From IMG/VR virus record IMGVR_UViG_3300028490_000003: DNA of 63,859 nt; one strand, written 5' to 3'. The stretch is from an uncultured virus (IMG/VR IMGVR_UViG_3300028490_000003) (lineage: Duplodnaviria; Heunggongvirae; Uroviricota; Caudoviricetes). This document shows, in pieces, positions 15,124-54,034 of the stretch (within the stretch, counting starts at the first letter, position 1; each line of letters opens with the position of its first letter). The notes under the pieces were generated by a model. It was given only the letters and a program-made list of their open reading frames with translations, was not told the origin of the DNA and ran no database searches. The position numbers and the translations under genes are program-made.

Positions 15124-15164
15124 TAAATAATAAATAGAATAAATAATAAATAATATTGAAAATT

Positions 15165-15929: not shown

Positions 15930-15970
15930 GTTTTAAATCTGGAGGAGTTTTAGCACCTACTGTAAATATA

Positions 15971-16240
15971 GTGCCTAATGGTGTTTTACATGAGGAGTTT
16001 AATGAACTTGGAGATAAAGGCATGCCTGTTGTAACATGTGATATGGATAAACAGGTATGTGAAAAAAAGTATGAGATAGAGAAAGATGAACTTATCTTGA
16101 CTAAATCTACTACTAAGACAGCAGAAGAATTATCTAAAGGAGGTAAATTAAAAGAATTAGGAGAGTTTATGACTCTACAATTACTTGCAAATACACATTC
16201 TTTTACAGATAAATTCAGCGACCTTAATAAACTAAATTAA
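15971..16240 (+). CDS. crAss-like virion protein domain (likely C-terminal part of the 15165 gene)
   Basis: Has only a GTG start. PNGVLHEE...KGMPVV...EIEKDELIL...T...ELG resembles the C-terminal domain of 16245..16925. Confidence 0.6.
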   Translation: MPNGVLHEEFNELGDKGMPVVTCDMDKQVCEKKYEIEKDELILTKSTTKTAEELSKGGKLKELGEFMTLQLLANTHSFTDKFSDLNKLN

Positions 16241-16244
16241 GAAG

Positions 16245-24953: not shown

Positions 24954-27900
24954 ATGGGAGAAATTGCAACACCGCAACAACAACAACCTACAAATAATAA
25001 TCAACAACCACCAAAGGATGTTGTAAAGGAGGCTACACAAGCTGTTGATACTCAGTATGATGTTAAGGATGAAATAGACGGGGATAAAAAACTCGATTGG
25101 TTTTATGTGAATTTAAAATATCCAAATGAGTCTACAAAGAATTTAGCTATTACATTTGGTAACGATGCTTTTGATAAGCTTAAATCTGCTGATGATTATT
25201 GGGACGACCCCGAGGTTCAGAAGAAGTTTAGTGATATGTATGGGTTTGCAGCAGAAGTAAAATTTAAAAAGTTTTATGAGCTGGCTACTGAAAGTTTTTC
25301 TAATTTTAAACTTGGTATTCATCAAAAAACACTTACAGCTACAGAACTTCATGCACTTGATTCAAATAAATTTAAACTAGATATAACTAGAAGATTTGAA
25401 AATTTTGCAGGTAATATACAGCTAGGAGAGGAGTTTACAAACGCTCAATTTTCATATAGAGAAAGATTACAAGATATCAGAGAATCTTTTGTGGATAAGG
25501 ATGGTAATGTAACTTTTAAATATTATAGATATAACCCAGATATGTTCGATCATATTATGGGTAAAGACGGGGTATCTGGGCTTGCGTATGGAGATATATG
25601 GGCTAACTATGACCCAGAAGCTGGTGTGTATGGTGCTTATATGGATGTTATTAAAGATGGAAAAATCTATGACGATAACATGCAAACTATGGTCGACGTT
25701 AGAAATGATCAAATTATAAGTAGATTAGATCTTACTACTGGAAATATATTCGATGGCCTTTTAGCAAATAATAAACTAGAAGATGATAGCATAGGAGATG
25801 TTTTAGCTATGATAGTTAGATCTCCTATAGGAATGCTTTCTGAATTAGTAGACACTGGTATTCAAGCATTTAGAATAGGTACTGTACTTTCATACGGTAT
25901 AGGTAAAGCTCTAGTAGATGATGAACTAGATGTACAGCAAAGTGAGTTTTTTAAAACTATGACAAATGCTGGTATATATGTAAAATCATTCAAAGGATCT
26001 TCAAGTGATTTCTCTAGAAGTAAAGGAGTATTTGGAAGTTTTGAGGCAGGTCTTACTGCTTTATTAGATTTAGCATTACAGATAGGGGTTGCCCGAGGAT
26101 TAGGTAGCGCTGCTTCATTTACAACTAGAAGATTAATGGCGGGATCATTATCTACAGGCGCACTTAGAAGATTAGAACAAAAAGCAGCTAATAAAGTTGT
26201 TAGAACTACTCTTACAGCATTTGCTGCTAAGGATGGATATAATGAGGCTAAAGAGATTGGGTTATCAGATACTGAAGCAGGTATTTATGCAGCTGTATCT
26301 TTTGTAGCTTTATGGCAAGCTACTAAATTTGCTGGATATATTACTGGTGAGTATGATGCAAGAGTAGTACGTAATAATATATCTACAATTATAAAAAGAG
26401 AATTAAATGATAATGTTGCTCCAGCATTTAGAAAACTTAGTCAAGAAGCTGCCAGAAGTGGTACTAAAAAAGCTGCCGCTGAACTAGGGAGTAAGCAAGG
26501 AAAAATGGCATTATCTGTAATGGGTGAAAAAATAGGAGGGTTTATAAAGAATATAAAACAATATATGCCTTCTGGGAAAATAGCTTTTGAAGCTCAACAA
26601 GAGTCTCTTGAGGAGATGAGTGAAGAACTTTTTCAAGATGTAGTTAAACATGCTACTTCTTTATATGGAGTACTGTTGAAGGATGCCAATGGCCCAGGGA
26701 ATAAAAGATTTAAAACTATCTTTGATGACGGTTATTTTGAAGATGCTGTTGAGAGATATGCTGCTTCTGGAATATTAGGTGGACTTGCTGGTCCTATGGG
26801 GATGATGTTTAGTGGTGGTGGATTACACCATGAGATAACTGACACTTCTAATTTAATAGATATTATAGCTTCTGGAAGGTCTTCTGAACTAGTAGACATT
26901 CTTCAGGATATGAAAGAAAGTGGTGAATTAGGGCCTACTGATCTAAGTATAAATTATAATGAAAAATTAAAAGCTTTTGAACCGATTCTAAAAGGAGAAA
27001 AGATAGAGTCTCTTGGGGACATGACTTTTAACTCATACATGCATGATATAAATATAGTTACTACATTTATAAATAAAGGTATGAACGGTAAGGCATTAAA
27101 GAGAATTCAAGAGGATCCTTTATTCAGTGATCAATTGAATGAGACTTCAATGAGAAAAGATTTTATCTTTAATACTACACAGTTACTAGCTCTTCATGAG
27201 CGAACTAAACTACCTATGTCTATATACCCAGAAATGGATGCATTAACAGAGGCACAGCTTGAGAATAATTTACCAGAACAAGTAGGTTTAATTAGTAAAG
27301 AGATAACTAAAACTAAAGATAATATAAAAGCTATTAAAAAAAGAATAGCTAAAACTACCCCAGATAGAGAAAGTAAATCAGCTACAAAAGAACCTGGTAA
27401 ACTTAAGCCAGACGTTGTTAAAAAACTTTATGGAGACGAGAAAGATAATACTAAAGAATTAGATATATTAAATAAAACTCTAGTTGCGTTAGAGGGCATT
27501 ACAGAGTCTGATATAGAAGAGTTATTTGATCTTTATAGAAAGATTAGAGGTATTGCACAGGGTACAGCATCTGAACATTATCTATTACAGCACATGCTAT
27601 TTAAAGATAAAACTTTTGGGCACCTATCTAATAGAGACCCTGAGTGGGAATACTTAGGAGAAACTCCATTTGTAGACCTTATGCATAATGCTACTATACG
27701 TTCTCTAGACGATGAAAAAGAGTTTTTAATAATTGGTAAAAAAGCATCTGATATAACTAAACAAATAAGATCTATTGATGAGTTTACACCAGAAAATATA
27801 CAGAAATTAAATTTACTTTTTTCTGACCCTGATAATCCTATAACTAAAGAAGCTCTTGAGCATATATCAAGTAAATATGATGTTAAGTCTCAATTAAGCA

Positions 27901-30900
27901 CTTTATTAAAAGGATTTAATATAGCTACTAAAGGTAGTCTTTTAACAGATGATGTTGGTAATTTTGATATAAAAAAAGCAAGAAGACTTTTGTATGATAT
28001 AGTAGAAACAAATACTACTGCTGTGGATACAGATAATAGTTTAATACTTACAACAATAAGTGCGTCTAGCGTTAAAAAAATATTTGAGGATTTTAAAAAA
28101 GATCCTGAGGGAGCAACTATGCCTACTTTTTTAGATAATGGGCAAGACTATGATGTATATGATACTAAGATTAAAATTATCGATTTATTACCTAAAGTTC
28201 AACATAAAGAACTTCAAAAGATTATAAATAGCATTGATGATTCTGTATTTACACTTAGAAAAATAGGAAATAATGCAGCATTAAAATTAAAGAATCATCA
28301 GTACTTTTCAGCATTTGATTTTGAGAGAGGTAATATTGAGATTCTATTTAGAACAATAGGGAAAAGTGGTAAATTTACAAATACAGATGTATTTTCTGAG
28401 GGAGCTACTGAAGTTATTGATTTAATATCTAACCCTAGAGGTAATGGTAAATACAGTAAAAAGGATAATACTAAAGTACTCGCTGTTTTAAAGGATATAA
28501 AACTTAGAGAAGAGATGTCTAAGGTGCTAACAAAGTTTTATTCTAAAGGAGCTTTTATGCACTATACACCTATGTTAAAAGCGTTTAGACAAAATACTTT
28601 AGATATTATAGATAAGACATATGATGTAGACGAGCATCCAGACACTACTACAGAGCGCCATTCATATAAAGATTATACTGCGTTTAGTGATTTCTTTACA
28701 GATTTTATATATGATCCTACTACATTTGAAAATGTAATAAATGCTAAGAACAGAGCTTTACTGACTGATGGGGATAAAAAAGCTCTTATTAAATTTGATA
28801 ATGTTGGTATAAATTTAGAACCGATAATGGTCTATAAAGATGAGAATGGTAAAAAAGCTACTGCCCCAGTTGAAGTAGATTATGACCTTTTAAAAATTCA
28901 TTTACTAAGCAGTGATAAATTTGATAATTTAGATACATCTGAGGATATAGTTAGAGCATTGAATATGTTTAAAAAGCCTACTATAACAATACCACAAAGC
29001 ATTGTTGGAGGAGATCCTTCTAAAAATGTAGTTGTAGTTCTTGCTGGAATATTTAAATTAAAAACGTTAGAATTTTTATTAGAGAAAACTAATTATTATA
29101 TAGAACAATCTTCTGGGCATGGAGCTAATATGCCATATATAGAAGATAAGAATGAACAAATTAAAGATACTTTTAGAGCATTTAATGGAGTAATATCTGG
29201 AGATAATATAGAAGATATTGATAAAGAAGATATTGCTAAATTTAAAACTTTTGTAGAGGTAGAGATACCAGACTATAGTTCTATTGTAGTTGACTACATA
29301 AATAATAAAATAGATTATGTGGTTTTAGGGCAATTGAATATAAAGTTAGAAAAATTATTCTATAGAGTATTCCATGAGGAAAATATATCTAACCTTAATT
29401 CTGGGTCATCGTCTCAACAAACTATAAAAGATATTATATTTAAGCATGTTATTGAAGGAGTTATATTTGCAGAAGATAACTTTAATTCTATTTATGGGGA
29501 AAATAAAGCTGAAGCATACGCAAATACTGTACTGTTAGGAGCTATCACTACTGATTTTACTGATTTTTATGCTATCTTTAAAGGAAGGTTAGAAAATTTA
29601 GCTGATACTGATAAAGTAGTAATTGCATCACAAGAGTTTTCAGCTAAGTATTCTTCTGCGTTTATATACTCAAAAGAGTTAAGAGATGTATTGTTAGATA
29701 ATAAAAATGAGGAGGATTATTTAAATACTGTATTTATATCTGGGGCCCCTGGTACTGGAAAATCTACCGCCGTTTTAGATCTTGGTTTAGATGTGGCTCT
29801 GGAGATTTTAGGAGCTCAAGATGAGAGTAATGTTACAAATGTTCTTGGAGTATCAAATAATGCTCCACAAATAAAAATATTAGATAGAACTTTAGGAGAG
29901 AAGAATGCTGGTGTAGCTGGGAAAAAAGTAGCTGATTTTTATGAGCTGTTAAGAAAGGCTGTTATTGATGAAAATAAACAAGCTCAAGAAGAGTTAGAAG
30001 AAGTAGGAGTTATTGTAATTGATGAGGTTACATATATACCTATAAATAAGCATGCTAACGGTCCTGTTACTTTAGGAGAAATTTCAGATCTATTATCAGA
30101 ATATAATAATCTATATAGGCTAGGTCAGAATGAAGCTGTCTTAGTTACTATGGGAGATAGTAAGCAATCTGGATATATAGGAATTAATGGATCACAAGAT
30201 TCTCTTCAAGGTAGAAATGTATTTGGTCTTCCATATATGGGGTTCTCTATGAGAGCTAGAAATTCTTTCTTAGTTAAAGCTTTAGATATTATAAAGACTA
30301 TGGAGGACAATATAAAAAGTCCTTTTTCTGCTGGTGGTGAAGGAAGTTCTGACTTTTTAGTAATACAGGAGGCTACTAAATACGGTAGTTTAAAAGGCCG
30401 CCAATATGGTATGAATATAGTCAAGGGGGAAGAGACTGGAAATAAGACTTTTATAAATATATTAAAAGATAAGATATTACTTAAAGATATTAGAGCTAAT
30501 TTAGAGGCTGAAACACCTTCTGGAGAGGATGCCTTTGATATTATATTTGGGCCAGAGAATATCAATGATTTTAATACTGCTTTAGATGGTAATAAAGAAT
30601 TAAAAAGTATTATCGAAGATTTTAAAGATAGAGTTTCTATAATTCCTGCAGATGAAATTGGAGGTTCAGAAGCTAATTATGTTATTGCAGAAGTACCTAA
30701 ATACCCTGGAGCAGTTAGCTATGCTAGAACCATTGGTATGCATAAAAAGTTTAATACTATTGCAACTAGAGCTAAGGATTTTACAATATTAGTATTAAAG
30801 GATGACACAATAATTTTACCTGGTAGTTCTAAATCTAGGCATATTAGTGAAGGTACAGTTATTATTCCTGAAAGTAGTGTAGATTTAGAGGATAAGAAAT

Positions 30901-33900
30901 TTTTTGCTAAGCATTATATAGAGATATTAAGTGGAGTGGATTCAATAATTGTTACACCACCTGTTAAACAACCACCTCCACCAGTAAATCCTAGTATAAT
31001 TCCACCTAAGAAGAAAAAGAAAAAGAAAAAGAAGAAGAAGAAAAAAGAGGATGATGACGATGACGACGATGATGATACTTTAAAAGGAGAGTTATTACAA
31101 ATTAGTGAAGACTTATTTAGTGTAGATATTCTTTTATCTACTAATACAATAGATAGTTTTAATAAAATAAATGATAGTGGGGATATAGAAAAAGCTGGTC
31201 ATACAGATAATAATGAGCAGGTTATAGTAAGACGATTTTTAGATAACGCTTATACATTATTAAATACTAATAATGCAGTTGCTAGTAATCTATCTATATT
31301 AAAAGCATCTTTTGAGGATGTTAGGATATCTAGTAAATTAGATAAGGATATAAAAACTTTATTTGGTAGTTTAATGGATCATATAGATAATGTGATGGCG
31401 GCTACCTTTGACGGGAAAGAAGAGGTTGCAGAGGACCTTGTAGATAAACTGAATGAAGTATTAGCTAAGATAGAGATAATCCCTACACCGACGTCTGATG
31501 ACGTTACAGAAGAGGATAGACAATTGTTTGAGGACGAAATAATATCTTTAATAAAAAGTTATAATAATACTTACGCAATTCAAATATTAGAAACAGTGCT
31601 TGCAGATACTGTTGATGGGGAAGAAATGGTATTTAAGAATGCTAAAATGAAATCTCTTTATGACACATTACGAAAAACGTATAATCTAGATAAGGTAGTA
31701 AAAGCTATACAAGACGTTGTTGTATCTTTAAATGCAAAATCATTTACATTTACACCGAAAGATAAGAAGAAAGATCTAGATATTACAGATGCTAAGTATA
31801 TTGATTTTATAGAGTGGATACAGGGTACAACTGAAATAGTTGCGCTTAGAGATATGTTTCATTCAATAACTAAAAAGAAACCATTTAAGAGACAAGATTT
31901 AAATGATTTATATACAGATTTATCTGAAATATATAATTTAAACCAATTAAAGAATGGGCTTAAAGAAGCACTTCAGTTACAAGCAGAAACTTTAGGAGAG
32001 GATATAATTCCTAAAAAACAAAGAATAAATAAATTGAAGAAAAAGTATGGTGGATATTTTAATAATAAACTTACTAAAAATAGAAAGGATGCTGGGAAAT
32101 TAAAATTATTACTTAGTGGAATTACAGATAGGACATTACTTGGTCAAATGAGTAATGTATTAGGAAGTCTTAAAAAGTCAACTACTAAATTATTTTCTAC
32201 TGTTCCTGGAATAGATGGGGATCTTGCTATTGAATTGGATAATGAGATGACTAAACTTATATCAGATGGGTTTACAATAACATCTATACGTAATACATCT
32301 AGAGATATTATAAATACTAGAATAGTTGCTTTAACGTCTCCAGCGGAGATAAAAGGATTAAAAGAGGAGGCCAATAAACTTGCTGCAGAATTAGGTATAA
32401 ATGTGAAAAAAACTGATTTTGAAGGAATGGCGCATATGTTAATATACAGACATCTAGAATTAATTGAAAGTGCTGATGAGATAGATGATGAAACAATTGA
32501 AAAAATACATAGATTACATAGTATTTTAAAAACTAGTTTATTGCCTAAATATAAAGGAGATAATAATAATTTTAAAAATAAATTTATAAAAGTTACAATA
32601 GATGATCATGCCTCTTTAGAAAATTATATTAAGGAAGCAGAGTCAGAACTTATTAGAAATGAGATATATACAGTAGAATCTAGACATGAAGGATTTGGGC
32701 AAGTAGGAGTAGAACTAAAAAAATTAGGTTACGAAGCTATCAGTAATGATGATAGACTTGCTATATTTGGAGTAAAGGGAGATCCTCCTAAAAGAGTACC
32801 TACTAATATAGAGATTATATTTGTAGAAAAAGATGGGGGTGCTATGGAAGCTTTTATTGCAGTAAAGCATAGAGGGCAAAAATATATTATTTCTCAAGTG
32901 TTTACTGGAAGAAAGGTTAAGTTACCTAATGGTAAGACTACTACAATAAGCAGCCCTACTACTTCGGCATTGTTTGAAAAAGGTAAAAGGTTTATTAAAG
33001 AAAATGAAGGAAAACCTGAAATAATACTTACTAATCATACAAGTAAAGACGGTACAGTATATACTCAAAAGATTGGGGTATATGATTTTGGAAAGTCTGT
33101 ATCTATTTCAGAAATACTTAGACTAAGACCTGGTAGTATAAATACATCTGATTCTACGGTATCTATAACAAGTTTAGAGAATGATGGAGTTAATGTTAGT
33201 AGTAATGCATATATTGTTAATAAAACATTAGTCGGTGGATTAAAGCATCAACAATTATTTTATTTATATTCTACACATCCTAAGATTGATTTAGATTCAT
33301 CTGAGGTAATAGAGAAAATTAATGCAGGTACACTAAGTAAGAATAAAGCAATTACTGTAGAGACTGGAGGTATTAAAGTTACTGTTGGGTTATTACCAGT
33401 AAAAGGAAAGATTACATTTTCTAGAATGGGAGATTTTATTAAAAGTGATATTAAAAATGGTTTACCGCCAGCATTTAATTCCCCATTAAGTATGGCTATT
33501 ACAAAAAGAGTAATGGACCTTACTAAAGAAGATGATGATTTTGATTATGTTAAAAATGCTTTTAATGAATTGAATGATGGGCAGAAAGAAAGGGCTGAAA
33601 AACATGTAACGAGAATTGTAGCTGATCCTAGTAGGAAAGAGGCATTAGATAAAGTAGTTGATATCTATATAAAGTCTGTTCAGAGCGATTCTAATGAGAG
33701 TGATAAATTATTATATTTAAAGATAAATAAAGCACATAAAAATAAGATAAAAAATCTTGTGCTTAATCTTGATTTATTATTTAAATTAAACATACCAAAC
33801 ATTAATAATGCGTTTGATGCTATTTTAGAAATTACAGGGTATGATTTTAAAGCTCCTGTAAAAAGAAATAAAACAGCTCAGTATTTAAAGGTTGATGCAG

Positions 33901-34625
33901 ATTTCTCACAATTTTTCAAAGGTAGTTACGTTTCTAATATAACTAGTATTTCATCACCAGAATTTGTATTAGATGGTAATGCTGTTGGATTAATTAAAAC
34001 TATTAGTAAAAAAGGTCCTGGACAATCTGGAATATATAAGAAGATTCCTTCTAAATTTAGTACTATAATAGCAGAGATTAAGAAGAATGGTGTAGATACT
34101 ATTAGTATTAACGTAGAAAAACTTAAGAGTACTACAGGGGCAGATATAGAAGGTGTTCTTAATAAAGCTAAAGAAGATATTGATCAGTTATTAACTTTTA
34201 TTAATAGTAATACTATTAGAAAAAGTGATTTATCTTTAGAGAATGTAAATCATTTAAAGAAAGCGTATAAAGATATAGTTGAACTTTTAAGTAATATTGA
34301 TGTGGACTATGACTTTATACATACCACTATTGATGGTAATGATGTGTTGCGTGATATGATTGTAGTATATAATGATTATTTGTATGAGACTAATAAAAGC
34401 TCTTTACTTAATAAAAAGGCTGTTACTGCTTTTAAAGATAGTTATAATACATTCCTTTCTATAGATACAAATTTTGAAGTAGGTTCACCTTTGTATTCTC
34501 AATTATTAGCTGCCTCTTTTACAATAGAGGAGATACAGGAGATGAAGAATATAATGAATACAATAGATGAAAGTGATTCTTTCGATGGATGTGGTGTTGA
34601 CTTTAATGAGGATGTACCCTTTTAA
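24954..34625 (+). CDS. Giant virion cargo protein with SF1 helicase-like domain
   Basis: 3223 aa. Walker A GAPGTGKST (29742-29768), VIVIDE (~30021), MGDSKQ, IGGSE and TRAK motifs. Hydrophobic segments near the N-terminus. Confidence 0.8.
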   Translation: MGEIATPQQQQPTNNNQQPPKDVVKEATQAVDTQYDVKDEIDGDKKLDWFYVNLKYPNESTKNLAITFGNDAFDKLKSADDYWDDPEVQKKFSDMYGFAAEVKFKKFYELATESFSNFKLGIHQKTLTATELHALDSNKFKLDITRRFENFAGNIQLGEEFTNAQFSYRERLQDIRESFVDKDGNVTFKYYRYNPDMFDHIMGKDGVSGLAYGDIWANYDPEAGVYGAYMDVIKDGKIYDDNMQTMVDVRNDQIISRLDLTTGNIFDGLLANNKLEDDSIGDVLAMIVRSPIGMLSELVDTGIQAFRIGTVLSYGIGKALVDDELDVQQSEFFKTMTNAGIYVKSFKGSSSDFSRSKGVFGSFEAGLTALLDLALQIGVARGLGSAASFTTRRLMAGSLSTGALRRLEQKAANKVVRTTLTAFAAKDGYNEAKEIGLSDTEAGIYAAVSFVALWQATKFAGYITGEYDARVVRNNISTIIKRELNDNVAPAFRKLSQEAARSGTKKAAAELGSKQGKMALSVMGEKIGGFIKNIKQYMPSGKIAFEAQQESLEEMSEELFQDVVKHATSLYGVLLKDANGPGNKRFKTIFDDGYFEDAVERYAASGILGGLAGPMGMMFSGGGLHHEITDTSNLIDIIASGRSSELVDILQDMKESGELGPTDLSINYNEKLKAFEPILKGEKIESLGDMTFNSYMHDINIVTTFINKGMNGKALKRIQEDPLFSDQLNETSMRKDFIFNTTQLLALHERTKLPMSIYPEMDALTEAQLENNLPEQVGLISKEITKTKDNIKAIKKRIAKTTPDRESKSATKEPGKLKPDVVKKLYGDEKDNTKELDILNKTLVALEGITESDIEELFDLYRKIRGIAQGTASEHYLLQHMLFKDKTFGHLSNRDPEWEYLGETPFVDLMHNATIRSLDDEKEFLIIGKKASDITKQIRSIDEFTPENIQKLNLLFSDPDNPITKEALEHISSKYDVKSQLSTLLKGFNIATKGSLLTDDVGNFDIKKARRLLYDIVETNTTAVDTDNSLILTTISASSVKKIFEDFKKDPEGATMPTFLDNGQDYDVYDTKIKIIDLLPKVQHKELQKIINSIDDSVFTLRKIGNNAALKLKNHQYFSAFDFERGNIEILFRTIGKSGKFTNTDVFSEGATEVIDLISNPRGNGKYSKKDNTKVLAVLKDIKLREEMSKVLTKFYSKGAFMHYTPMLKAFRQNTLDIIDKTYDVDEHPDTTTERHSYKDYTAFSDFFTDFIYDPTTFENVINAKNRALLTDGDKKALIKFDNVGINLEPIMVYKDENGKKATAPVEVDYDLLKIHLLSSDKFDNLDTSEDIVRALNMFKKPTITIPQSIVGGDPSKNVVVVLAGIFKLKTLEFLLEKTNYYIEQSSGHGANMPYIEDKNEQIKDTFRAFNGVISGDNIEDIDKEDIAKFKTFVEVEIPDYSSIVVDYINNKIDYVVLGQLNIKLEKLFYRVFHEENISNLNSGSSSQQTIKDIIFKHVIEGVIFAEDNFNSIYGENKAEAYANTVLLGAITTDFTDFYAIFKGRLENLADTDKVVIASQEFSAKYSSAFIYSKELRDVLLDNKNEEDYLNTVFISGAPGTGKSTAVLDLGLDVALEILGAQDESNVTNVLGVSNNAPQIKILDRTLGEKNAGVAGKKVADFYELLRKAVIDENKQAQEELEEVGVIVIDEVTYIPINKHANGPVTLGEISDLLSEYNNLYRLGQNEAVLVTMGDSKQSGYIGINGSQDSLQGRNVFGLPYMGFSMRARNSFLVKALDIIKTMEDNIKSPFSAGGEGSSDFLVIQEATKYGSLKGRQYGMNIVKGEETGNKTFINILKDKILLKDIRANLEAETPSGEDAFDIIFGPENINDFNTALDGNKELKSIIEDFKDRVSIIPADEIGGSEANYVIAEVPKYPGAVSYARTIGMHKKFNTIATRAKDFTILVLKDDTIILPGSSKSRHISEGTVIIPESSVDLEDKKFFAKHYIEILSGVDSIIVTPPVKQPPPPVNPSIIPPKKKKKKKKKKKKKEDDDDDDDDDTLKGELLQISEDLFSVDILLSTNTIDSFNKINDSGDIEKAGHTDNNEQVIVRRFLDNAYTLLNTNNAVASNLSILKASFEDVRISSKLDKDIKTLFGSLMDHIDNVMAATFDGKEEVAEDLVDKLNEVLAKIEIIPTPTSDDVTEEDRQLFEDEIISLIKSYNNTYAIQILETVLADTVDGEEMVFKNAKMKSLYDTLRKTYNLDKVVKAIQDVVVSLNAKSFTFTPKDKKKDLDITDAKYIDFIEWIQGTTEIVALRDMFHSITKKKPFKRQDLNDLYTDLSEIYNLNQLKNGLKEALQLQAETLGEDIIPKKQRINKLKKKYGGYFNNKLTKNRKDAGKLKLLLSGITDRTLLGQMSNVLGSLKKSTTKLFSTVPGIDGDLAIELDNEMTKLISDGFTITSIRNTSRDIINTRIVALTSPAEIKGLKEEANKLAAELGINVKKTDFEGMAHMLIYRHLELIESADEIDDETIEKIHRLHSILKTSLLPKYKGDNNNFKNKFIKVTIDDHASLENYIKEAESELIRNEIYTVESRHEGFGQVGVELKKLGYEAISNDDRLAIFGVKGDPPKRVPTNIEIIFVEKDGGAMEAFIAVKHRGQKYIISQVFTGRKVKLPNGKTTTISSPTTSALFEKGKRFIKENEGKPEIILTNHTSKDGTVYTQKIGVYDFGKSVSISEILRLRPGSINTSDSTVSITSLENDGVNVSSNAYIVNKTLVGGLKHQQLFYLYSTHPKIDLDSSEVIEKINAGTLSKNKAITVETGGIKVTVGLLPVKGKITFSRMGDFIKSDIKNGLPPAFNSPLSMAITKRVMDLTKEDDDFDYVKNAFNELNDGQKERAEKHVTRIVADPSRKEALDKVVDIYIKSVQSDSNESDKLLYLKINKAHKNKIKNLVLNLDLLFKLNIPNINNAFDAILEITGYDFKAPVKRNKTAQYLKVDADFSQFFKGSYVSNITSISSPEFVLDGNAVGLIKTISKKGPGQSGIYKKIPSKFSTIIAEIKKNGVDTISINVEKLKSTTGADIEGVLNKAKEDIDQLLTFINSNTIRKSDLSLENVNHLKKAYKDIVELLSNIDVDYDFIHTTIDGNDVLRDMIVVYNDYLYETNKSSLLNKKAVTAFKDSYNTFLSIDTNFEVGSPLYSQLLAASFTIEEIQEMKNIMNTIDESDSFDGCGVDFNEDVPF
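31008..31076 (+). repeat. Low-complexity K13-E-D9 tract
   Basis: 13 Lys codons (mixed AAG/AAA), GAG, then 9 Asp codons (mixed GAT/GAC), preceded by a Pro-rich linker. Confidence 0.95.
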
Positions 34626-34638
34626 ATAAAATATTAAT

Positions 34639-45279: not shown

Positions 45280-45290
45280 AATAAGAAAAT

Positions 45291-48200
45291 ATGAATTGTA
45301 AAATTTCAATAGATATAAATAAAGGTAAGCATTCAGTTAATGTTTCTAAATATGGAGCTAATATAGCTACTGATATGCTTTCTGCTTCAAGTGTCTTTAA
45401 CGAGAGCACATTTGAGATGGAGCAAAAACCTACAGTTTCTTTTGCATCAATAGCTAAGAAGACAAAAGCACAAAAAGTGTTATCAAGTTTCTTTTTAACT
45501 AATGATAATAGTAGTTTTAACTCTAATAGTATGAGGAAGATATACGGAGATAAGACTGTAGACAGCTTTATTAAACTTACATTATCTACAACAGAAGAAA
45601 GACTTAAAAAAGTTACTGCTATTTTTAATAGTAATAATAAAATTAAAAGTACTTTACTTACTGAGAATGCCCCTATAGTAGTAGAAGATGATAAATTCAC
45701 AGCAGACGAGGATCCTACACGAGATTATATATCTATAGATAATACAATTTTAAAGCAGATAGATTTAGCAATACCTAAAAGTATAGTTGGAGAAGAACGT
45801 AATATTGAGTTAAATAATTTATTAAGTATTTTTATTACATCAGCTTTTCAAAGAGGGTATAGTGTTCATATTAAAAATCCTTTAAATGGTACTCACATCT
45901 CAATAGGTGCGAAAGCTTTCAATAAGGCTAATAATGGTAAGAATGCAAATTACATATCATCTAGCCAAAGAACAGATGCATTAGCACATATTATATTCTC
46001 TCAAGATATTATAAAAACTATTAGTAACTTAGATAGAGATAATACTAAAAAAGATAAGATAGTTCCTTCAAAGGATTCTGGACTTCTTACTGATTTCTTA
46101 TCTGAAGAAGATAGAATATTTGTGGATAAATTTAAACTTATTCCACTATCAAGTAAGGCTTTTATAGCAGGTAGTATTGCGGATGTATTTTTAGAATTTA
46201 TACCTAACTTAAAAGTAAATTTATTAACTACAGCAGAAATTAAAGAAACTTATAACAATGCTTTCTCTACAAAAAAAGGATTTATAATAGGCGGGGAAAT
46301 AGTTATAAATTTAGATACATTTACACCTGATACAATGTTCCATGAGATGGGTCACTTCTATATGAAATGGCTTTCAGAATATAATCCATCGCTTAAGAAG
46401 AAGATTTTAAATAATATGAAGGATCTTTTTTCAAGTGATATAGTAAACTATACTAAAATATATACTGACACAGGAATAGCTTTTTCAGAGGATGATATAT
46501 TAGAAGAGATATTTACTACTAAATTAGGATTAGATGGGTTTAAAGGATTATCTAAAGTAATGGATGTGAATGAAATACGTTCATTTGATAAAAAAGTAAA
46601 GCGCCTGGTATCTGATTCTCCAATAACAAATAGTAATCTTAAAGGAGCTGATATCTTTTTCGTAGATAATACAGACTCTTTTAAAAATACTAATAAAGAT
46701 GTTATTAATATGTCTTCGATGGATATTACCAAAGAAGGATTCTTTGCGAGTTTATTTCAACCTGTACCATTATCTTCTAAATCTATAGTAGTAGGGCCAT
46801 TTAAAAATGATTCTGATGTATCTATTGATAATATTAAGTTTAAAGCTAATATGGCAGAAGCTGCTAGTGCGTATGAGTATTTTCTATTGAATGGGGTAGA
46901 TAGCAAGCTTGTTAAGAAATATGACCTTTCTACAGAACACCAAAATATACTAACTAAACAGCATGCTTTTATATTAAATAATATAGAGTTTAATAATTTA
47001 AATGCCCCAATGGTTGAGAATTATATAAACATAGAAATGGGAGATTATTCTTTTTCTGAGATATTATATAATTTTTCTAAGCAATTACAGGTAAATGAGG
47101 ATCTAGAGAGTAAAGATAAAAATGTATTTAAATATAGAGGTAGAAGTATAAAATTAGATTTTCATCTTGGTTATGAACAAGAAGTAGCACTTAAAAAAGC
47201 TATTGATTTTACAGTAGAGACTAAGCATTCTACTCCTTTAATAATACAAGGATCAGCAGGTACTGGTAAAAATACAGTTATAAAAAATCTTTATAAATAT
47301 TTAAAGACTCCTATAACATATATTTCTCCTACACATTCATCTAGTTTATTAGCAGCAAAGAATTTAAATGATACTATTACAAAGATGCCTAGAGTAATTA
47401 ATGATGTAATAGGTAAATTATCTACTGGTCATAAAGTGTTTCTTAAAAATAGTGAAAATGACAATAGTGAACCTAATGGTATTTTTATTGTAGATGAAAT
47501 AAATATGATTAATGATGAAGATGTTTTCTGGCTAAGATTTAATTTAGGTGGTTTTAATAAAGCTGAAATCAGTAATTTAACAGAGCAGGAGCAATCATTC
47601 TTCTATATACCTAGAAATACACCTAGTAGAACATTAAATGCTTTACGCTCAAGATTTACGCTAGAGAATGAAACAATAGAAGGTGAAGAAATGTATTTTA
47701 TAAATACTCTTAGACCATCTGTTAAATTAGTGGGATTGGGGGACATTAAGAAAATTAGTCCTTTTTCTAACGAGGGCGATTCTATTAGTAAATTTTTTGA
47801 TACATATAATACAGCTAAGATAGGTAAAATATATAGTGCAAAAGCTGAAGATCTTTTAGCTTATACTAATTATGTAAGAAAGCAACGTTCTTTTAAACCT
47901 GTAAGTATACAGGGTACTGATGAGTCTCTTTTATTTGTAAATGGGGAAGAAGACATGTTTACTTTATTTACAAAAGATTTAACATTAGATAGAACTAAAG
48001 CTTCTTTCTTAACTCCTGATGAACATGAGGTAGAGTATGTAAATAATCGTATAAAACAATTATTAGATGGTACTACTACTACTATTGTAGGTGATGCTAT
48101 TGTAGGATATAAAGGAAGTGGTAATAAAAGTATTATTAAAAATAATTATACAGATAATAATGTAAAAGATTTAGGCTTCGCAGAGGATATTACTTATAAA

Positions 48201-49679
48201 GTTACAAATATTCTTAAAGAGGAGTTTTCTTTAGGAGAAAGAGTTTTACAGGCTGTTAAACTAACTGGAGTATCTGAAGAAACTTCAAGCTTTATAAAGC
48301 CCCTAAATAAGACAAAATTTAAAACTAAGAATCTATATTCTAAAGTTACTAGACATATTATACCTTTATTCAGTGATGATAATATAAACCTAGATAATAT
48401 GCTTGAGGTTGATTTTTCTAATAATAGATCAGAGTTGGCTGATTATATAGCTGATAAATTTACAGAGATAGAAGAAAAAGACATATCAGCTGATGATGTG
48501 CAGGTAGAAAAACAAGCATTTATTACAGACTTATTTACTTCTAAAATAGATATAAGTAAAAAAATAGTAATAGATTTAACTACTAAGAAAATAACTCCAT
48601 TTGCAGAAATAAATAAATTAGATGGTAATTATATAATCATTGAGAAAGGATTAGATTATAACTATGCTATGGATGTATATAAGGGAGCTGGTAAGAATAT
48701 GTCTAATGTTTATATTGATATAGATAGTATTCAAGATATATCAGAAAAAGGAAGTATATATGATTTTCATAATAATAATATAAATGATTTTAAAAACTCT
48801 ATGTTCTACACAGCTTTAAGTTCTGTAGCAGATAGGGCCGTAGTGTATTCTAAAACTAATAATGTATATTCAGATGAAATTACTACTGATGAAATTGGTA
48901 TTAATGAGGAAGAATCTAAGTATATAAATAGAAAAGTAGGGGAGACTATAAAGACTTATACTAGGTCCTTTATGAAGAAATTGATAGGATCAGTTACATT
49001 AAATGATGATTTATCTAGAGTTGCAGATAATGGCGTATTTAGTATTTTAGATATGTTAGATATGGCATATACAGAAGGTACAGAATTTACCCCTATCTAT
49101 GATATAGATAATATGAATGACGCTGTTACTCATATTAAAAATTTCACTCTTCAAAAAGCCTCTATTGTTGAAATTACTAACGGGTTGCTTAACAGAGGGT
49201 TAATTACAAAAACACCTGATGGGCGATTAGTTCTTAAAGATATTGATGGTAATTATATGGATCATAACGGTAATTATATCGACGGTCCATCTAGTCTGGT
49301 TGTAGGTGATGAGGATATTATTTCTAATGAGATGATTAGAAAGATGTATGGTTATCTTAATATAAATAAGGATGCTTCTCAAATAATGTTTGCCGTGGAT
49401 AGAAAAGTTATTAATACTGCTATTGACACTGTTAAAAGTATATCTAGTAAAATAGCTAGAAATGATAAAGGTAGATATGAGATGAATGGGGTAGAACTAA
49501 AAGGTGCTACAAGAATAATAGAAGATGAATTTAGTGACCCTTTTGAAGTAGATCAACATGTTAAGTTGAGTATTTTTTATGAGGGTGTAGATAGTATTAA
49601 AAAGGTTTACATCTCTCAAGGGATGTCTGAGAAAGAAGCTGAGAATAAGGCTATCGCACAAAGTGAAAAAATATATTAG
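45291..49679 (+). CDS. Giant cargo protein, N-terminal part: zincin-like metallopeptidase plus degenerate RecD/Dda-like helicase
   Basis: HEMGH (46341-46355) with a downstream EE. GSAGTGKN (~47250), FIVDE, LGD and YAMDVYKGAG. Ends in the only TAG among the + strand genes, inside a nuclease domain. Confidence 0.8.
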   Translation: MNCKISIDINKGKHSVNVSKYGANIATDMLSASSVFNESTFEMEQKPTVSFASIAKKTKAQKVLSSFFLTNDNSSFNSNSMRKIYGDKTVDSFIKLTLSTTEERLKKVTAIFNSNNKIKSTLLTENAPIVVEDDKFTADEDPTRDYISIDNTILKQIDLAIPKSIVGEERNIELNNLLSIFITSAFQRGYSVHIKNPLNGTHISIGAKAFNKANNGKNANYISSSQRTDALAHIIFSQDIIKTISNLDRDNTKKDKIVPSKDSGLLTDFLSEEDRIFVDKFKLIPLSSKAFIAGSIADVFLEFIPNLKVNLLTTAEIKETYNNAFSTKKGFIIGGEIVINLDTFTPDTMFHEMGHFYMKWLSEYNPSLKKKILNNMKDLFSSDIVNYTKIYTDTGIAFSEDDILEEIFTTKLGLDGFKGLSKVMDVNEIRSFDKKVKRLVSDSPITNSNLKGADIFFVDNTDSFKNTNKDVINMSSMDITKEGFFASLFQPVPLSSKSIVVGPFKNDSDVSIDNIKFKANMAEAASAYEYFLLNGVDSKLVKKYDLSTEHQNILTKQHAFILNNIEFNNLNAPMVENYINIEMGDYSFSEILYNFSKQLQVNEDLESKDKNVFKYRGRSIKLDFHLGYEQEVALKKAIDFTVETKHSTPLIIQGSAGTGKNTVIKNLYKYLKTPITYISPTHSSSLLAAKNLNDTITKMPRVINDVIGKLSTGHKVFLKNSENDNSEPNGIFIVDEINMINDEDVFWLRFNLGGFNKAEISNLTEQEQSFFYIPRNTPSRTLNALRSRFTLENETIEGEEMYFINTLRPSVKLVGLGDIKKISPFSNEGDSISKFFDTYNTAKIGKIYSAKAEDLLAYTNYVRKQRSFKPVSIQGTDESLLFVNGEEDMFTLFTKDLTLDRTKASFLTPDEHEVEYVNNRIKQLLDGTTTTIVGDAIVGYKGSGNKSIIKNNYTDNNVKDLGFAEDITYKVTNILKEEFSLGERVLQAVKLTGVSEETSSFIKPLNKTKFKTKNLYSKVTRHIIPLFSDDNINLDNMLEVDFSNNRSELADYIADKFTEIEEKDISADDVQVEKQAFITDLFTSKIDISKKIVIDLTTKKITPFAEINKLDGNYIIIEKGLDYNYAMDVYKGAGKNMSNVYIDIDSIQDISEKGSIYDFHNNNINDFKNSMFYTALSSVADRAVVYSKTNNVYSDEITTDEIGINEEESKYINRKVGETIKTYTRSFMKKLIGSVTLNDDLSRVADNGVFSILDMLDMAYTEGTEFTPIYDIDNMNDAVTHIKNFTLQKASIVEITNGLLNRGLITKTPDGRLVLKDIDGNYMDHNGNYIDGPSSLVVGDEDIISNEMIRKMYGYLNINKDASQIMFAVDRKVINTAIDTVKSISSKIARNDKGRYEMNGVELKGATRIIEDEFSDPFEVDQHVKLSIFYEGVDSIKKVYISQGMSEKEAENKAIAQSEKIY

Positions 49680-49695
49680 AGGCTGGTCCAGCTTT
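49666..49695 (+). other. -1 frame break (A6 run plus small hairpin) joining 45291..49679 and 49706..54034
   Basis: The -1 frame is open from 49667 (KNILEAGPAFQKKMKAKK...). The hairpin AGGCTG-GTC-CAGCTT starts ~8 nt after the A6 run. Confidence 0.7.
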
Positions 49696-49705
49696 CCAAA
49701 AGAAA

Positions 49706-52700
49706 ATGAAAGCTAAAAAAGATGTCTTTGAATTTAAAAAGGAAGAAGGAACTTATATACATAATATGTATGAATTCTTTGTAATGGCTTTAAATTATTC
49801 TCAGTCTATTGAATATAAAACTAAAGTTAAAGGATATGATTATACTTATTTTTTAGGGCCTATTCAAGATGCTATAGTTAATGAGGATAGAGCTAAATTT
49901 GAGAAATACTTTCAAGATAATTTTTTCGATAGATTAAAGGGGGAAACAAAATCTCCTGAATATATTCAGTTTAAGAAAGCGTTTAATTTTATACGTAAAA
50001 ATGTAAAGAATGGAGATTTAGTATTTGTAGATGCAGCGCTAAGTTCATTAACATCTTTCTTGAAAACAAATGTGTATAGAGCTTCATTACCTGGGCCATT
50101 AACACTTATGCCTGAAGTAGTTATAGGAAATGATTCTATGGGTATAGTAGGTATAGTGGATTTAATGGTAATAGACGGTAGAGGTACTGTTCATTTATAT
50201 GATTATAAAACTAAAGAAGAGAATAAATTTCATAACTGGGCATATTTAAAAGGAAATGTTAGACTTAGAAATGAGATGGATTCTTATAAGAATAATGCTA
50301 TGACAAAGGCTAGTATTCAATTATCTTTATATAAACTTATTTTAAAAGAAAGAGGATTGGATGTTGGTAGTACTAGCGTAGCTTATGTAGAAGCTGCTAT
50401 TAAAGGAGGTGATCCTGCAAATATTTTCAGCGATCCTAAAAAACTTAAATATAAAGTAAAAAGAATCTTTAAAACTTCTTTAATAGATGTATCTGCAGAT
50501 TTAACAAAATACTTTAAACGTGAAGGTGTCGACAACTCAATTATATATGAGAACACAGATGCTGCTGAAATAACTGATTTTGTTGTGCGTGCAGCTGGTG
50601 GATTTAATATAGAGATCCCAGGGGATATTGAAGTTACAGCTAAAAGAATATATGATAGATCAATAGGGAGAAGTAAATTTAATAGTGAAAAACAACAGGC
50701 TGTTCAGCGTATCCTTAATATGGGAGGGACTGATAAAAAAGGTCTAAATATTGTATTACCAGGGGAGATTAAACATACTATTCCTAAAACCATAATAGGA
50801 GAAAAAGCTACTATTGAGTATATTGTTGATTTAATAAAGAAAAGAAAAGGAACATCTTTTATAGAGAGTGATTTAGAATCTATTTTCAATAGTCTAGATA
50901 GAAATAGAGTGATTGAAGAAGAGACGTTATCTGCTGGAGATAAAGAAAAAGCTATTAGAGGTTTACTTAATGGTACTGATTCTTCTACTTATGAATTTAT
51001 GAAGTTTTCTTCTGATATTAATTATGGTACTGATTTTAATGGGGTATCATTCTTAAAAAATAAAATAACTGGAGAGGTTAGAATTATTGTATTAAACCCT
51101 GATGAAGAACGTTTTATTCCTTTCAGAGAAGGGTATCATAACATATTAGGTAACTACATAAGTACTAATGCTTTAAAAGCACAGTATCCTACAATAGCAT
51201 GGACTAATACTAATTTCAATATGAGATTAATTAAAACTGGTCTTATGATATTAAGAGCTAAGCAATTAAACCCAGATTTTAAAGTCAGTATGATTTTAAT
51301 GAATAGAGGATTTAAAACTGGTAATGATCGTCCTATTAAAGTAGATATGCTTGAGTTGATGGAAGTTACTAAAGCTATGATGGAAGAAGCAAATAAAGCA
51401 GGAGAAGAGTTACCTTCAGTGTTTCAAGAGTCTGTAAATGATTACGATACATTTAATCCTAATAATTATATGCCTGATCCTTTATTAGCTGTTAGTGATT
51501 ATATAGAAAGTCTTACTAGTAATAATATAGATCTTGAAAATGTATTTTCTAAAAAGGGAGCTGAACGAGCTAGAGCTGTTTCTAAGATAATTAAGAATTA
51601 TGACGAAACTGTAGATTTTCAAAAGCTGTTAGATGCAGTACAGGATTTACAACATTCTTTAGAACTTAGAATTAGCCCTTCAAAAAGAGCTAGTAGTGAT
51701 GTTTGGAAAGTATTAGATGATTCTATTTTATTTTTACTAGGATTTAATTTTACAATAAGTCCTAAAAATACATCATGGACTCAGAAGTTCTTTTTCATGC
51801 CTTCTGCTACATCAAATGTATATATGTCATCATTTAATAGAAAAATAACTACTTCTAATACTGCTTATAGAACAGATTTTATAGCTTATAAAAAGAAATT
51901 TAATATCTTAATTCAAGATTTAGCTGATGAAAATGGAGTAAATATTAGTGCCTTAGGAGAGTCTTTATTTAGAGCTAGTATGAAAGATTTAATGACTAAT
52001 CTTTTTGTTGATCCTACAAATACTGACAAGGCTAAAGCTTATACTTTAAAGAGTGAAACTGCAGCTGGGTTAAATAGCGCAGAAAAAGCTCTGATTAGAT
52101 TTATTAATGAGCAAATGAATTTAAATATTGAAAACTCTATAAACAGATCTTTTAATATAAAGAATGGGTGGCTTCCTCTTATACCTAGATCTAAGCTAAG
52201 CGCTAGAGAAGATACCGACGCATTAGAAAGAGCTGAAAAATCTCTTAAAAGTTTATATAAAATAAAAACTAATACTACTGTAGATAACCATGATTTAGAT
52301 ACTAGTAGAGAAAAAGAATTTTCTACTAAGAATGCATTTGATCACCAAATACCAGGTAAAAAACAAGAGGGGTTACAATTTACTAATGATAGAAGATATT
52401 TATTAGGTATAGACGAAGATGGGAATGCAATTGATAATAATTCAGATGGTATATTCGAAGATAATATAGAGAATATTGTAGATGCTATTGTAGCGTCGTC
52501 TCTGCAAACAGTGCACTTTAGAGATGTATCATCATTTGGTAGAGCTTTATTTTATAATGTTAAAAGAGAAGAACAATTAACTGGAAATACATATGATAAT
52601 ATATTAGATGTACTTACTATTATTCAAAGAAAGAACATTAATAATAAAACGTCTGATGAAAAAATACCAGGGCTGGCCTCTCTAAACAAGATTGCAACTG

Positions 52701-54034
52701 GAGCTGTTATTGCAGGTTCTATTAATCAGATGTTATTAGAGACATTTACTAACCCTTTAATAACTATGGATAATTACTTAGGTGATTTAATCTATGGAAC
52801 AATATTTAAAGGGCAACGAGAATTTGGTCTTACTAGTTATAGAAAAGCATTTAATATTGTTACTGGAATTACATCTAGTAAAGATAAAGCAGTTTTAGAA
52901 GCTATTGATTTACAATATGGTTTCTCAAATAGTGATTCTACTGAAATGCAAAAAGTATTAAAAATGCTTGAAGGTAATTCTATTTTCCAAAGTCATAAAT
53001 TAATGTATGTTAATAAGCTTATTTTAGAATCTTGGCAAAAAATTACTATGGCTGCCTATATGATAGAGCAGGGGAGTTTCTATGCTCATAGTCTTGATGG
53101 TGATGGTAATCTTGTATATGATGATACTAAAGATAAACGTTTTTATGGTGGAAGTAATACAGAGTATAAAGATAAATTTTACAAAGCTACTAAAGCAAAA
53201 ATGGCTACAGAAAGATCTGGGTTAACTGGAACTGTCCGTGATCCTTACGACGAAAGAGATCTTGCAAAAGCTTACACAGAATTTGATATAAACTATTTAA
53301 AAGAAAAATTAGTGGAATTATATTCTTCTTTAGATAATAGTTCTAAATCCATGGCTATTTATTATACTTGGATGAGTTTTATAACTAAAATGAGAACATG
53401 GTTATTTGCTAAAATGGGACGTTATTTTAAAAAGCCTATGACTGCTCAAGAAGGGGCTTCTATGTCTAGACTTAGAAGAATTAAAGATGATAGTGCAGAA
53501 GGAGGGTATAGACTAGAATGGGTAGGAGAAGCTTCTGAAGGTATTCTATTCTCTGTTTTTGGAATTGGTAGATTATTTATGGAATATAAATTTGATATGT
53601 TTAAGAATGGAACTGTTACAGAGGTTCATAAAAAGAATATGTCTAAATTAATTGCTGATATGATAGTAGGATTAGGGCTTGCAGCTGCAGCCTGGGGAAT
53701 GTTTAATATGGGATTAGATGACGACGATAGAAAAAACCCTTTAGCTCAGATTGTATATAAAAGATTTATGATGGCTACAGGTGATGCATTTTTAATTAAA
53801 TCTTTAGTAGATACTACTATGGGAAATGGGTCTATGTTTATTGGCCCAGCTATTATAAAGAATGCTTTTATGAAAGCAGGTTCTGCTGTTTGGATGACAG
53901 GTACATATGGGTTTAATGATGATATCACTCCAGGAGATGTTGGAGAATCTTATATAAGAGCGGCGGCAGGGTTTTATGGCCCAATTAAGTCAGGTACTCA
54001 GTTATATGACATCTATAAATCTTTTGATGACTAA
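49706..54034 (+). CDS. Giant cargo protein, C-terminal part: PD-(D/E)xK (RecB-like) nuclease plus helical/hydrophobic region
   Basis: GTYIH..YE, PEVVI, GIVDLMVID...LYDYKT and QLSLY motifs. Hydrophobic LIADMIVGLGLAAAAWGMF near the C-terminus. Confidence 0.8.
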   Translation: MKAKKDVFEFKKEEGTYIHNMYEFFVMALNYSQSIEYKTKVKGYDYTYFLGPIQDAIVNEDRAKFEKYFQDNFFDRLKGETKSPEYIQFKKAFNFIRKNVKNGDLVFVDAALSSLTSFLKTNVYRASLPGPLTLMPEVVIGNDSMGIVGIVDLMVIDGRGTVHLYDYKTKEENKFHNWAYLKGNVRLRNEMDSYKNNAMTKASIQLSLYKLILKERGLDVGSTSVAYVEAAIKGGDPANIFSDPKKLKYKVKRIFKTSLIDVSADLTKYFKREGVDNSIIYENTDAAEITDFVVRAAGGFNIEIPGDIEVTAKRIYDRSIGRSKFNSEKQQAVQRILNMGGTDKKGLNIVLPGEIKHTIPKTIIGEKATIEYIVDLIKKRKGTSFIESDLESIFNSLDRNRVIEEETLSAGDKEKAIRGLLNGTDSSTYEFMKFSSDINYGTDFNGVSFLKNKITGEVRIIVLNPDEERFIPFREGYHNILGNYISTNALKAQYPTIAWTNTNFNMRLIKTGLMILRAKQLNPDFKVSMILMNRGFKTGNDRPIKVDMLELMEVTKAMMEEANKAGEELPSVFQESVNDYDTFNPNNYMPDPLLAVSDYIESLTSNNIDLENVFSKKGAERARAVSKIIKNYDETVDFQKLLDAVQDLQHSLELRISPSKRASSDVWKVLDDSILFLLGFNFTISPKNTSWTQKFFFMPSATSNVYMSSFNRKITTSNTAYRTDFIAYKKKFNILIQDLADENGVNISALGESLFRASMKDLMTNLFVDPTNTDKAKAYTLKSETAAGLNSAEKALIRFINEQMNLNIENSINRSFNIKNGWLPLIPRSKLSAREDTDALERAEKSLKSLYKIKTNTTVDNHDLDTSREKEFSTKNAFDHQIPGKKQEGLQFTNDRRYLLGIDEDGNAIDNNSDGIFEDNIENIVDAIVASSLQTVHFRDVSSFGRALFYNVKREEQLTGNTYDNILDVLTIIQRKNINNKTSDEKIPGLASLNKIATGAVIAGSINQMLLETFTNPLITMDNYLGDLIYGTIFKGQREFGLTSYRKAFNIVTGITSSKDKAVLEAIDLQYGFSNSDSTEMQKVLKMLEGNSIFQSHKLMYVNKLILESWQKITMAAYMIEQGSFYAHSLDGDGNLVYDDTKDKRFYGGSNTEYKDKFYKATKAKMATERSGLTGTVRDPYDERDLAKAYTEFDINYLKEKLVELYSSLDNSSKSMAIYYTWMSFITKMRTWLFAKMGRYFKKPMTAQEGASMSRLRRIKDDSAEGGYRLEWVGEASEGILFSVFGIGRLFMEYKFDMFKNGTVTEVHKKNMSKLIADMIVGLGLAAAAWGMFNMGLDDDDRKNPLAQIVYKRFMMATGDAFLIKSLVDTTMGNGSMFIGPAIIKNAFMKAGSAVWMTGTYGFNDDITPGDVGESYIRAAAGFYGPIKSGTQLYDIYKSFDD

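Follow-up and report, generated by a model that had tools for sequence, protein, structure and literature searches.

Gene layout of the cargo module

The stretch analyzed here, a 63,859-nt record of an uncultured member of the Caudoviricetes (IMG/VR IMGVR_UViG_3300028490_000003; "the window" denotes this whole stretch), is the module of a divergent crAss-like phage that encodes its structural proteins and cargo. Our analysis concerns three giant proteins encoded in this module, the middle one a homologue of the crAss-like virion RNA polymerase (RNAP), and the few cysteines (Cys) located at their adjoining termini. The listing of open reading frames (ORFs), together with our own translation, revealed a run of plus-strand ORFs (18546-54034) comprising six presumed cargo ORFs (Table 1). 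Tail-fibre-like genes lie 5' of this run, and minus-strand genes for replication and nucleotide metabolism (ribonucleotide reductase, dUTPase, and primase) lie 3' of it.

TABLE 1 Cargo ORFs and cysteine codons of the window
Feature	Position	Strand	Remarks
1347-aa protein, Cys-free, upstream of the giants	18546..22589	+	Outside the proposed chain; 0 Cys by count
782-aa protein, Cys-free, directly 5' of giant 1	22601..24949	+	0 Cys by count
Giant 1, 3223 aa, proposed first chain member	24954..34625	+	
Codon of giant 1 Cys3213 (sole Cys, 10 residues before the last)	34590..34592	+	
Virion-type RNAP homologue, 3546 aa, proposed middle chain member	34639..45279	+	TGGDFDID motif and profile match
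Codon of RNAP Cys4	34648..34650	+	Invariant column in the RNAP-homologue alignment
Codon of RNAP Cys3546 (last residue)	45274..45276	+	
Giant 3a, 1462 aa, proposed last covalent member	45291..49679	+	
Codon of giant 3a Cys3 (sole Cys)	45297..45299	+	
Giant 3b, 1442 aa, no Cys	49706..54034	+	Separate ORF; homologous to the C-terminal two thirds of P0010

The first-pass annotation of this sequence had treated the ORFs starting at 45291 and 49706 as two parts of a single giant 3, which is borne out by a fused relative, P0010 (2163 aa), that aligns to residues 50-430 and 1219-1442 of giant 3a and to residues 6-1404 of giant 3b (E-value 7e-235). In the window, the two parts lie in different frames with a 26-nt spacer, and a joining of 3a and 3b by frameshift was rejected because the reading frame of 3b stays open for no more than 14 codons ahead of its ATG. 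Residues 430-1219 of giant 3a form an insertion of ~790 residues that is absent from P0010 and contains a P-loop/PIF1-like region (residues 626-744; Pfam AAA_19, residues 644-741).

Cysteine distribution in the window

Across the ORFs at 24954-54034, our translation and count identified four cysteines in 9,673 residues, namely, giant 1 residue 3213 of 3223 (sequence context DGCGVDFNEDVPF), RNAP residues 4 and 3546, and giant 3a residue 3. The 1347-, 782-, and 1442-aa proteins contain none. Under a model in which four cysteines are placed uniformly over the 9,673 residues, the chance of finding one in each of four junction-facing segments of 11 residues is ~4e-11. The six cargo ORFs together hold 4 cysteines in 11,802 residues (0.034%), compared with 1.4-2% in non-cargo ORFs (ribonucleotide reductase, for example), a depletion like that of Cys-depleted phage ejection proteins. 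The cysteine pattern is not a product of chance and is under strong selection. The claim of the first-pass annotation that four cysteines in about 9,700 residues all sit at adjoining termini was correct in every coordinate on recount, and additional internal cysteines, which that annotation had named as a finding that would speak against it, were absent from the three giants.

Identity of the RNA polymerase

The middle giant carries the catalytic DFDxD motif of crAss-like RNAPs (TGGDFDID at residues 2057-2064), and D2060, F2061, D2062, I2063, and D2064 are invariant in an alignment of the window RNAP with its close homologues. This assignment is further strengthened by a profile made from 80 crAss RNAP cores in which the motif had been masked; this profile matches residues 1994-2284 of the window RNAP weakly (E-value 1.3e-7 at Z = 1e6) and recovers crAss001 gp50 and phi14:2 gp077 at 6e-178 and 3e-116, respectively. 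Drobysheva et al. number the phi14:2 RNAP gp66 and its neighbours gp65 and gp67; the crAss001 counterpart, gp50, is accompanied by gp47 and gp49. On this sequence evidence, the 3546-aa protein is a homologue of the crAss virion RNAP (the two-barrel, phi14:2 gp66 family), and a distant one because the profile match is weak.

Like the RNAPs of crAss001 and phi14:2, the window RNAP combines the DFDxD motif with two giant neighbours and the same terminal cysteine pattern, but it is larger (3546 versus 2180-2412 aa) and very divergent from the known crAss RNAPs, with no PHROG, tblastn, or PDB sequence match. Specifically, the PHROGs gave zero matches for the six cargo ORFs, tblastn of the C-terminal 2000 aa against 50,697 phage records gave none, the window RNAP-family profile gave 0 matches among PDB sequences at E-values up to 0.01, and hhalign of the family alignment against phi14:2 gp077 aligned only 2 columns. 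A scan of viral contigs for close relatives likewise yielded 0 distinct loci. The position of these genes within the structural module and the cysteine depletion of their products suggest that the RNAP and the giants are probably packed in the virion and ejected from it.

Terminal cysteines in close homologues and cultured phages

The terminal position of the cysteines is retained among close homologues. A word-index search recovered three RNAP homologues (P0002-P0004; 55, 36, and 28% identity) that each have exactly two cysteines, one at residue 4 and one 0-2 residues from the end. Four giant-1 homologues (P0005-P0008) all have a single cysteine 1-6 residues from the C-terminus, and the single cysteine of the sole giant-3 homologue found, P0010, is residue 3. 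An exhaustive HMMER search with RNAP residues 1250-2399 against 1.84 billion representative proteins returned 61 matches, 59 of them new, and 33 of these 59 were at least 2400 aa long. Both terminal cysteines (one within the first 10 residues and one within the last 10) were present in 31 of the 33 long homologues and were the only cysteines in 28, with 69 cysteines in 111,510 residues altogether. Of the remaining two, P0047 is a gene call truncated at its 5' end, with V as its first residue, and P0038 lacks the C-terminal cysteine and may also be truncated.

The cultured phages crAss001 and phi14:2 obey the same rule. In crAss001, gp50 has cysteines at residues 5, 1334, and 2404 of 2412, gp49 has one at residue 5, and gp47, encoded on the strand opposite to gp50 and gp49, has one that lies 2 residues from its end. 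In phi14:2, the RNAP gp077 has cysteines at residues 3 and 2179 of 2180, the single cysteine of gp078 is its last residue, and that of gp076 is residue 3. All three phi14:2 proteins are annotated in the record as found in virions by mass spectrometry.

Survey across divergent crAss-like phages

To extend this comparison, 143 loci of 20 kb around the catalytic motif were taken from IMG/VR, and the 102 with a motif-bearing ORF of at least 800 aa were retained (the other 41 were mostly 626-nt stubs) and grouped into 81 RNAP clusters at 70% identity, with counts made per cluster. A cysteine was found within the last 10 residues of the RNAP in 79 of 80 clusters (in L002 it lies at -13). The following ORF of ≥400 aa had one among its first 10 residues in 76 of 77; the exception is L009, where an unrelated ORF of 673 aa is interposed and the one beyond it begins with MKC. 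Adjacent upstream giants had a cysteine in their last 10 residues in 22 of 24 cases, the misses being L010, in which it lies at -17, and L061, in which the upstream ORF is a different gene. Control ORFs of the same loci had a cysteine in the first 10 residues in 9 of 60 cases and in the last 10 in 6 of 60, as expected from their cysteine content of 1.46%. In these counts, as in the long homologues, the terminal enrichment whose absence the first-pass annotation had named as speaking against its proposal is evident (31/33, 79/80, and 76/77).

The terminal cysteines are kept even where the giants hold 10-23 internal ones (L030, L061, and L062), and the rule also holds in 14 TAG-recoded loci. Their flanks are loosely conserved: the C-terminal cysteine is preceded by acidic residues (Glu/Asp) at -8 to -5 and by Lys at -2 and -1, and the N-terminal side often follows M-x(1-4)-C-P-N-x-N-x-x-E-W/Y. 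Among 13 downstream proteins with 18-49% identity, C4 is one of 11 invariant columns.

Several features of the surveyed loci were recorded alongside these counts. Dozens of in-frame TAG codons in the giant genes indicate that TAG is reassigned in L037, L038, L043, L045, L049, L050, L052, L072, L075, L079, L081, L085, L099, and L105; the single in-frame TAG of L077 and that of L095 are real stops between the RNAP and the next gene. In one large clade, the downstream giants (L035, 12750-16199, and 12 aligned proteins) share a conserved IDFL...DWKF motif. An AlphaFold2 model of residues 1-1150 of the L035 protein, built from a 13-row alignment (mean predicted local distance difference test score, 69.7; N-terminal 107 residues under 50), had no PDB match at E-values up to 0.001, and its domain at ~290-510 bears a weak likeness to PD-(D/E)XK nucleases (MGME1 and Cas4; Foldseek E-value 0.09, probability 0.97). 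The RNAP gene is interrupted in L082 (4677-12867) and L078 (2-12813). In L082, ~900 nt immediately ahead of the catalytic motif separate pieces of 1440 and 982 aa, which together approximate the length of crAss001 gp50; the arrangement is suggestive of an intron or mobile insertion.

Dependence of the cysteines on gene splits and fusions

The presence of a terminal cysteine follows the protein junctions. The outer ends of the set are largely devoid of it: the N-terminus of the upstream giant had none in any of the five cases available (0/5), and the C-terminus of the downstream protein had one in only 2 of 60 (L010 and L098), both of which are then followed by a further protein with an N-terminal cysteine. 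In the window, the 782-aa protein has no C-terminal cysteine, in keeping with the cysteine-free N-terminus of giant 1.

Presumed gene fusions behave correspondingly. Among RNAPs whose start lies inside the locus, 35 of 49 have an N-terminal cysteine; 12 of the 14 that have none are 3,937-5,262 aa long, and the other two are fragments of interrupted genes. The length of these 12 proteins is about that of the upstream giant and the RNAP combined and their catalytic motif lies near residue 3,300, so we read them, from length and motif position rather than from alignment, as upstream giants fused to the RNAP. The protein encoded 5' of the long RNAPs was cysteine-free in 5 of 5 cases examined. A preprint on the phi14:2 RNAP (10.1101/2020.03.07.982082) describes the three proteins as fused in some phages and "likely cleaved." In the long RNAPs, only the C-terminal cysteine of the RNAP and the N-terminal cysteine of the downstream protein are left, so that any pairing would have to be between this pair of residues.

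Splits and insertions can show the converse. In L010, proteins of 901 and 1360 aa match the N- and C-terminal parts of single proteins in L070 and L071, and the new junction carries a cysteine pair. In 4 of 7 gaps examined between RNAP and downstream giant, the small proteins encoded there (172-396 aa) contain two cysteines and no more, one per end. The convergent partner layout of crAss001 was found within the available sequence in 7 of 12 clusters of that type. A cause at the DNA level, such as a junction motif or translational coupling, was rejected because the spacing varies between junctions and the rule holds for partners on opposite strands.

Precedent and related ejection systems

The cyanopodophage A4 (Anabaena phage A-4L) provides a structural counterpart. 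As described in the available text of a cryo-electron microscopy study (PNAS 2025; PMC12002296), a disulfide joins Cys1715 of gp27 to Cys5 of gp26 in the virion pre-ejectosome, where the C-terminal helix of gp27 sits in a cleft of gp26. In the A-4L record, the two proteins are products of consecutive genes; gp27 has 1717 aa with Cys1715, 2 residues from the C-terminus, as its sole cysteine, and gp26 has 1114 aa with Cys5 as its sole cysteine. The window displays the same signature, in which an upstream protein with a lone C-terminal cysteine precedes a protein with a lone cysteine near residue 5, and the mechanism therefore has a precedent. The remark in the first-pass annotation that no such mechanism was known to have been described is thus superseded: it has been seen once, in A4, and for Crassvirales, literature searches, including Drobysheva et al. 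as preprint and the main text of the crAss001 paper, yielded no report on cargo cysteines or disulfides. The preprint (10.1101/2020.03.07.982082) makes no mention of cysteine or disulfide, and the main text of the crAss001 structure paper (PMC10172136) does not contain the word "cysteine" and says nothing on cargo disulfides.

The two systems also differ. As far as the A4 text goes, a single link connects two components of the T7-like internal core of A4, with no RNA polymerase involved, whereas two links are proposed for the window and up to four or more for its relatives. The crAss rule extends over an entire phage order and tracks the splitting and fusing of genes; no general rule is stated in the A4 text (PMC12002296).

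A second comparison is provided by the N4-like phages, whose ejected proteins (N4 gp50 and DEV gp71-73) are, in the available text of PMC11445570, strongly depleted in cysteine, which is explained there by passage through the periplasm. They resemble the proteins of the window in combining a giant virion RNAP and companions with strong cysteine depletion, but they have essentially zero cysteines, the few found being judged annotation errors, and that text describes no terminal pairs. The N4-type RNAP also belongs to a different family (T7-like single-subunit) from the window RNAP.

A proposed disulfide-linked cargo chain and its alternatives

These observations led us to favor, with a probability of roughly 0.62, the interpretation that the terminal cysteines form inter-protein disulfides that link giant 1, the RNAP, and giant 3a head to tail in the virion. 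Giant 1 Cys3213 would bond to RNAP Cys4 in the particle and RNAP Cys3546 to giant 3a Cys3, so that the three proteins would make up one covalent thread of ~8,200 residues, equivalent to the single fused polyprotein of some relatives. Such a thread would pass through the tail in a set order and, once in the host cytoplasm, be cut by reduction so that the polymerase is freed. Direct observations comprise the cysteine pattern, the near-universality with which it is conserved, and the way it changes where genes are split or fused; the correspondence of the signature to a real disulfide is argued by analogy with A4 gp27-gp26, and bond formation in crAss virions, ordered feeding through the tail, and cytoplasmic release by reduction are steps that we infer. 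The same applies to the roles in stoichiometry and ejection order that the first-pass annotation had suggested, which the chain could fulfill. The proposal of that annotation that the C-terminus of giant 1 is joined to the N-terminus of the RNAP, and the C-terminus of the RNAP to the N-terminus of giant 3, in gene order, gained strong comparative support, as these are the only conserved cysteines in every relative examined, are absent at presumed fusions and present at the L010 split, are missing from the outer ends, and occur in opposite-strand partners; it does not extend to 3b.

More broadly, Crassvirales may employ a "virtual polyprotein" of two to at least four gene products, small ones included, that are disulfide-joined head to tail (up to ~10,000 residues), in which a peptide bond is swapped for a disulfide upon gene splitting or fusion and which leaves the capsid as one molecule, the reducing environment of the host cytoplasm then releasing the individual active enzymes from it. 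To this general form we give slightly less than even odds.

Several points weigh against the chain. The case for a disulfide or other covalent cargo link in crAss-like particles is drawn from sequence patterns and analogy. The four cysteines would equally serve a cyclised RNAP with a giant 1-giant 3 link, or dimers of like ends, as sequence does not fix the pairing. The 3a/3b split in the window carries no cysteine pair at its new ends; 3b is therefore not part of the covalent chain as proposed, and not every split is accompanied by a pair. At two loci, the cysteine is more internal than the rule predicts (-13 in L002 and -17 in L010). Neither sequence nor fold connects the crAss proteins to those of A4: a phmmer search with the window proteins recovered none of the A4 proteins at E-values up to 1e-3, and Foldseek of the L035 downstream-protein model against the PDB gave no A4 chain among the matches listed. 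The A4 precedent is therefore an analogy, and the candidate idea that the crAss downstream protein shares the gp26 fold was set aside, as the L035 model yielded no supporting PDB match. Many crAss-like phages replicate in anaerobes, and the cytoplasm in which the proteins are synthesized is reducing, which poses a problem for the timing and manner of bond formation. Finally, the main text of the crAss001 structure paper (PMC10172136) reports disulfides in the tail and gp57 only, with gp47, gp49, and gp50 not resolved; that report does establish that disulfides form in crassvirus particles. A co-fold prediction of RNAP residues 1-600 with giant 1 residues 3084-3223 returned no answer (score 0.00) and speaks neither for nor against binding.

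The alternative that retains the most weight, although an unlikely one, is that the terminal cysteines bind partners other than the neighbouring protein, be it another virion part (the portal, the inner capsid wall, or cargo protein 1), a further copy of the protein itself (in C-to-C or N-to-N dimers), or the opposite end of a cyclised RNAP. Sequence is silent on which cysteine pairs with which, and, according to the main text of PMC10172136, crAss001 is believed to package each cargo protein in several copies (e.g., six of each RNAP-associated protein) and its tail proteins use inter-subunit disulfides. The comparative data nevertheless point to neighbours: the number of cysteines always fits neighbour pairing, with outer ends that have none (0/5) or have one only where an extra member follows (2/60), the RNAPs read as fused lose both cysteines of the junction at once, inserted small proteins have one per end, and the long RNAPs leave only the RNAP C-terminal and downstream N-terminal cysteines. 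The A4 bond likewise runs from an upstream C-terminus to a downstream N-terminus (PMC12002296).

A metal ion bridge (e.g., Zn or Cu held by two thiolates and nearby acidic side chains) in place of the disulfide is less probable still. It would exploit the Glu/Asp-rich stretch at -8 to -5 before the C-terminal cysteine and could form in a reducing cytoplasm, and therefore it would avoid the problem of oxidation timing; however, each junction offers two cysteines only, with no conserved His or further cysteine nearby, and the one solved example with this signature, in the A4 text, is a disulfide.

Marginally weaker, and likewise improbable, is a role after ejection, in which the cysteines would, for example, place assembly of the polymerase complex inside the host under redox control or serve as modification sites. 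The phi14:2 RNAP is believed to enter the particle self-inhibited and to need activation after delivery (10.1101/2020.03.07.982082), which would suit such a role, yet the A4 bond is present in the virion (PMC12002296), the flanks vary among junctions apart from the cysteine, no modifying enzyme is evident, and a rule that follows splits and fusions is expected of an inter-chain link and not of a modification site. The absence of any function, with cysteines purged from ejected proteins and tolerated in disordered termini, fits the cysteine suppression known in the ejected proteins of Schitoviridae (available text of PMC11445570) and the low-confidence N-terminal 107 residues of the L035 model, but is as good as dismissed, since tolerance predicts sporadic cysteines at any terminus and is already contradicted by the survey (79/80 and 76/77 at junction-facing ends versus 0/5 and 2/60 at outer ends), the long-homologue counts, and the invariance of C4 in 13 downstream proteins that share 18-49% identity.

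If the disulfide chain is real, it would bear on the means by which crassviruses package and deliver protein on the megadalton scale, the infection-initiating polymerase among it. A covalent, reducible tether would be a simple physical answer for the order, stoichiometry, and release of the cargo, and would explain why these genes fuse and split freely in evolution. The crAss001 paper (PMC10172136), in its main text, considers the order of extrusion to be likely controlled by packing and mutual interactions. For annotators, the terminal cysteines provide a sequence rule that finds chain members without a recognisable family.

Other features of the window

The 1347-aa protein at the start of the cargo run occupies a position resembling that of the crAss001 cargo proteins gp45/gp46 and has no PHROG or Pfam family match; in 5 of 5 relatives examined, the corresponding position is taken by cysteine-free proteins of 545-952 aa. 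Giant 1 contains a P-loop helicase-like region at residues 1592-1738 (Pfam SLFN-g3_helicase, E-value 8e-6).

Six further ORFs of the window (226-784 aa; among 803-2386, 2477-4657, 6932-9286, and 15156-18049) are also cysteine-free, three of them with matches to tail-fibre or virion-structural families, and cysteine depletion therefore reaches beyond the presumed ejected proteins. In addition, three cysteine-containing structural proteins (4659-5885, 5903-6898, and 11209-15123) end in a penultimate cysteine (YTCP, TPCH, and GLCP, respectively), and the middle one has tail-protein PHROG matches. Given the disulfide-bonded tail parts of crAss001, these proteins may represent another terminal-cysteine link.

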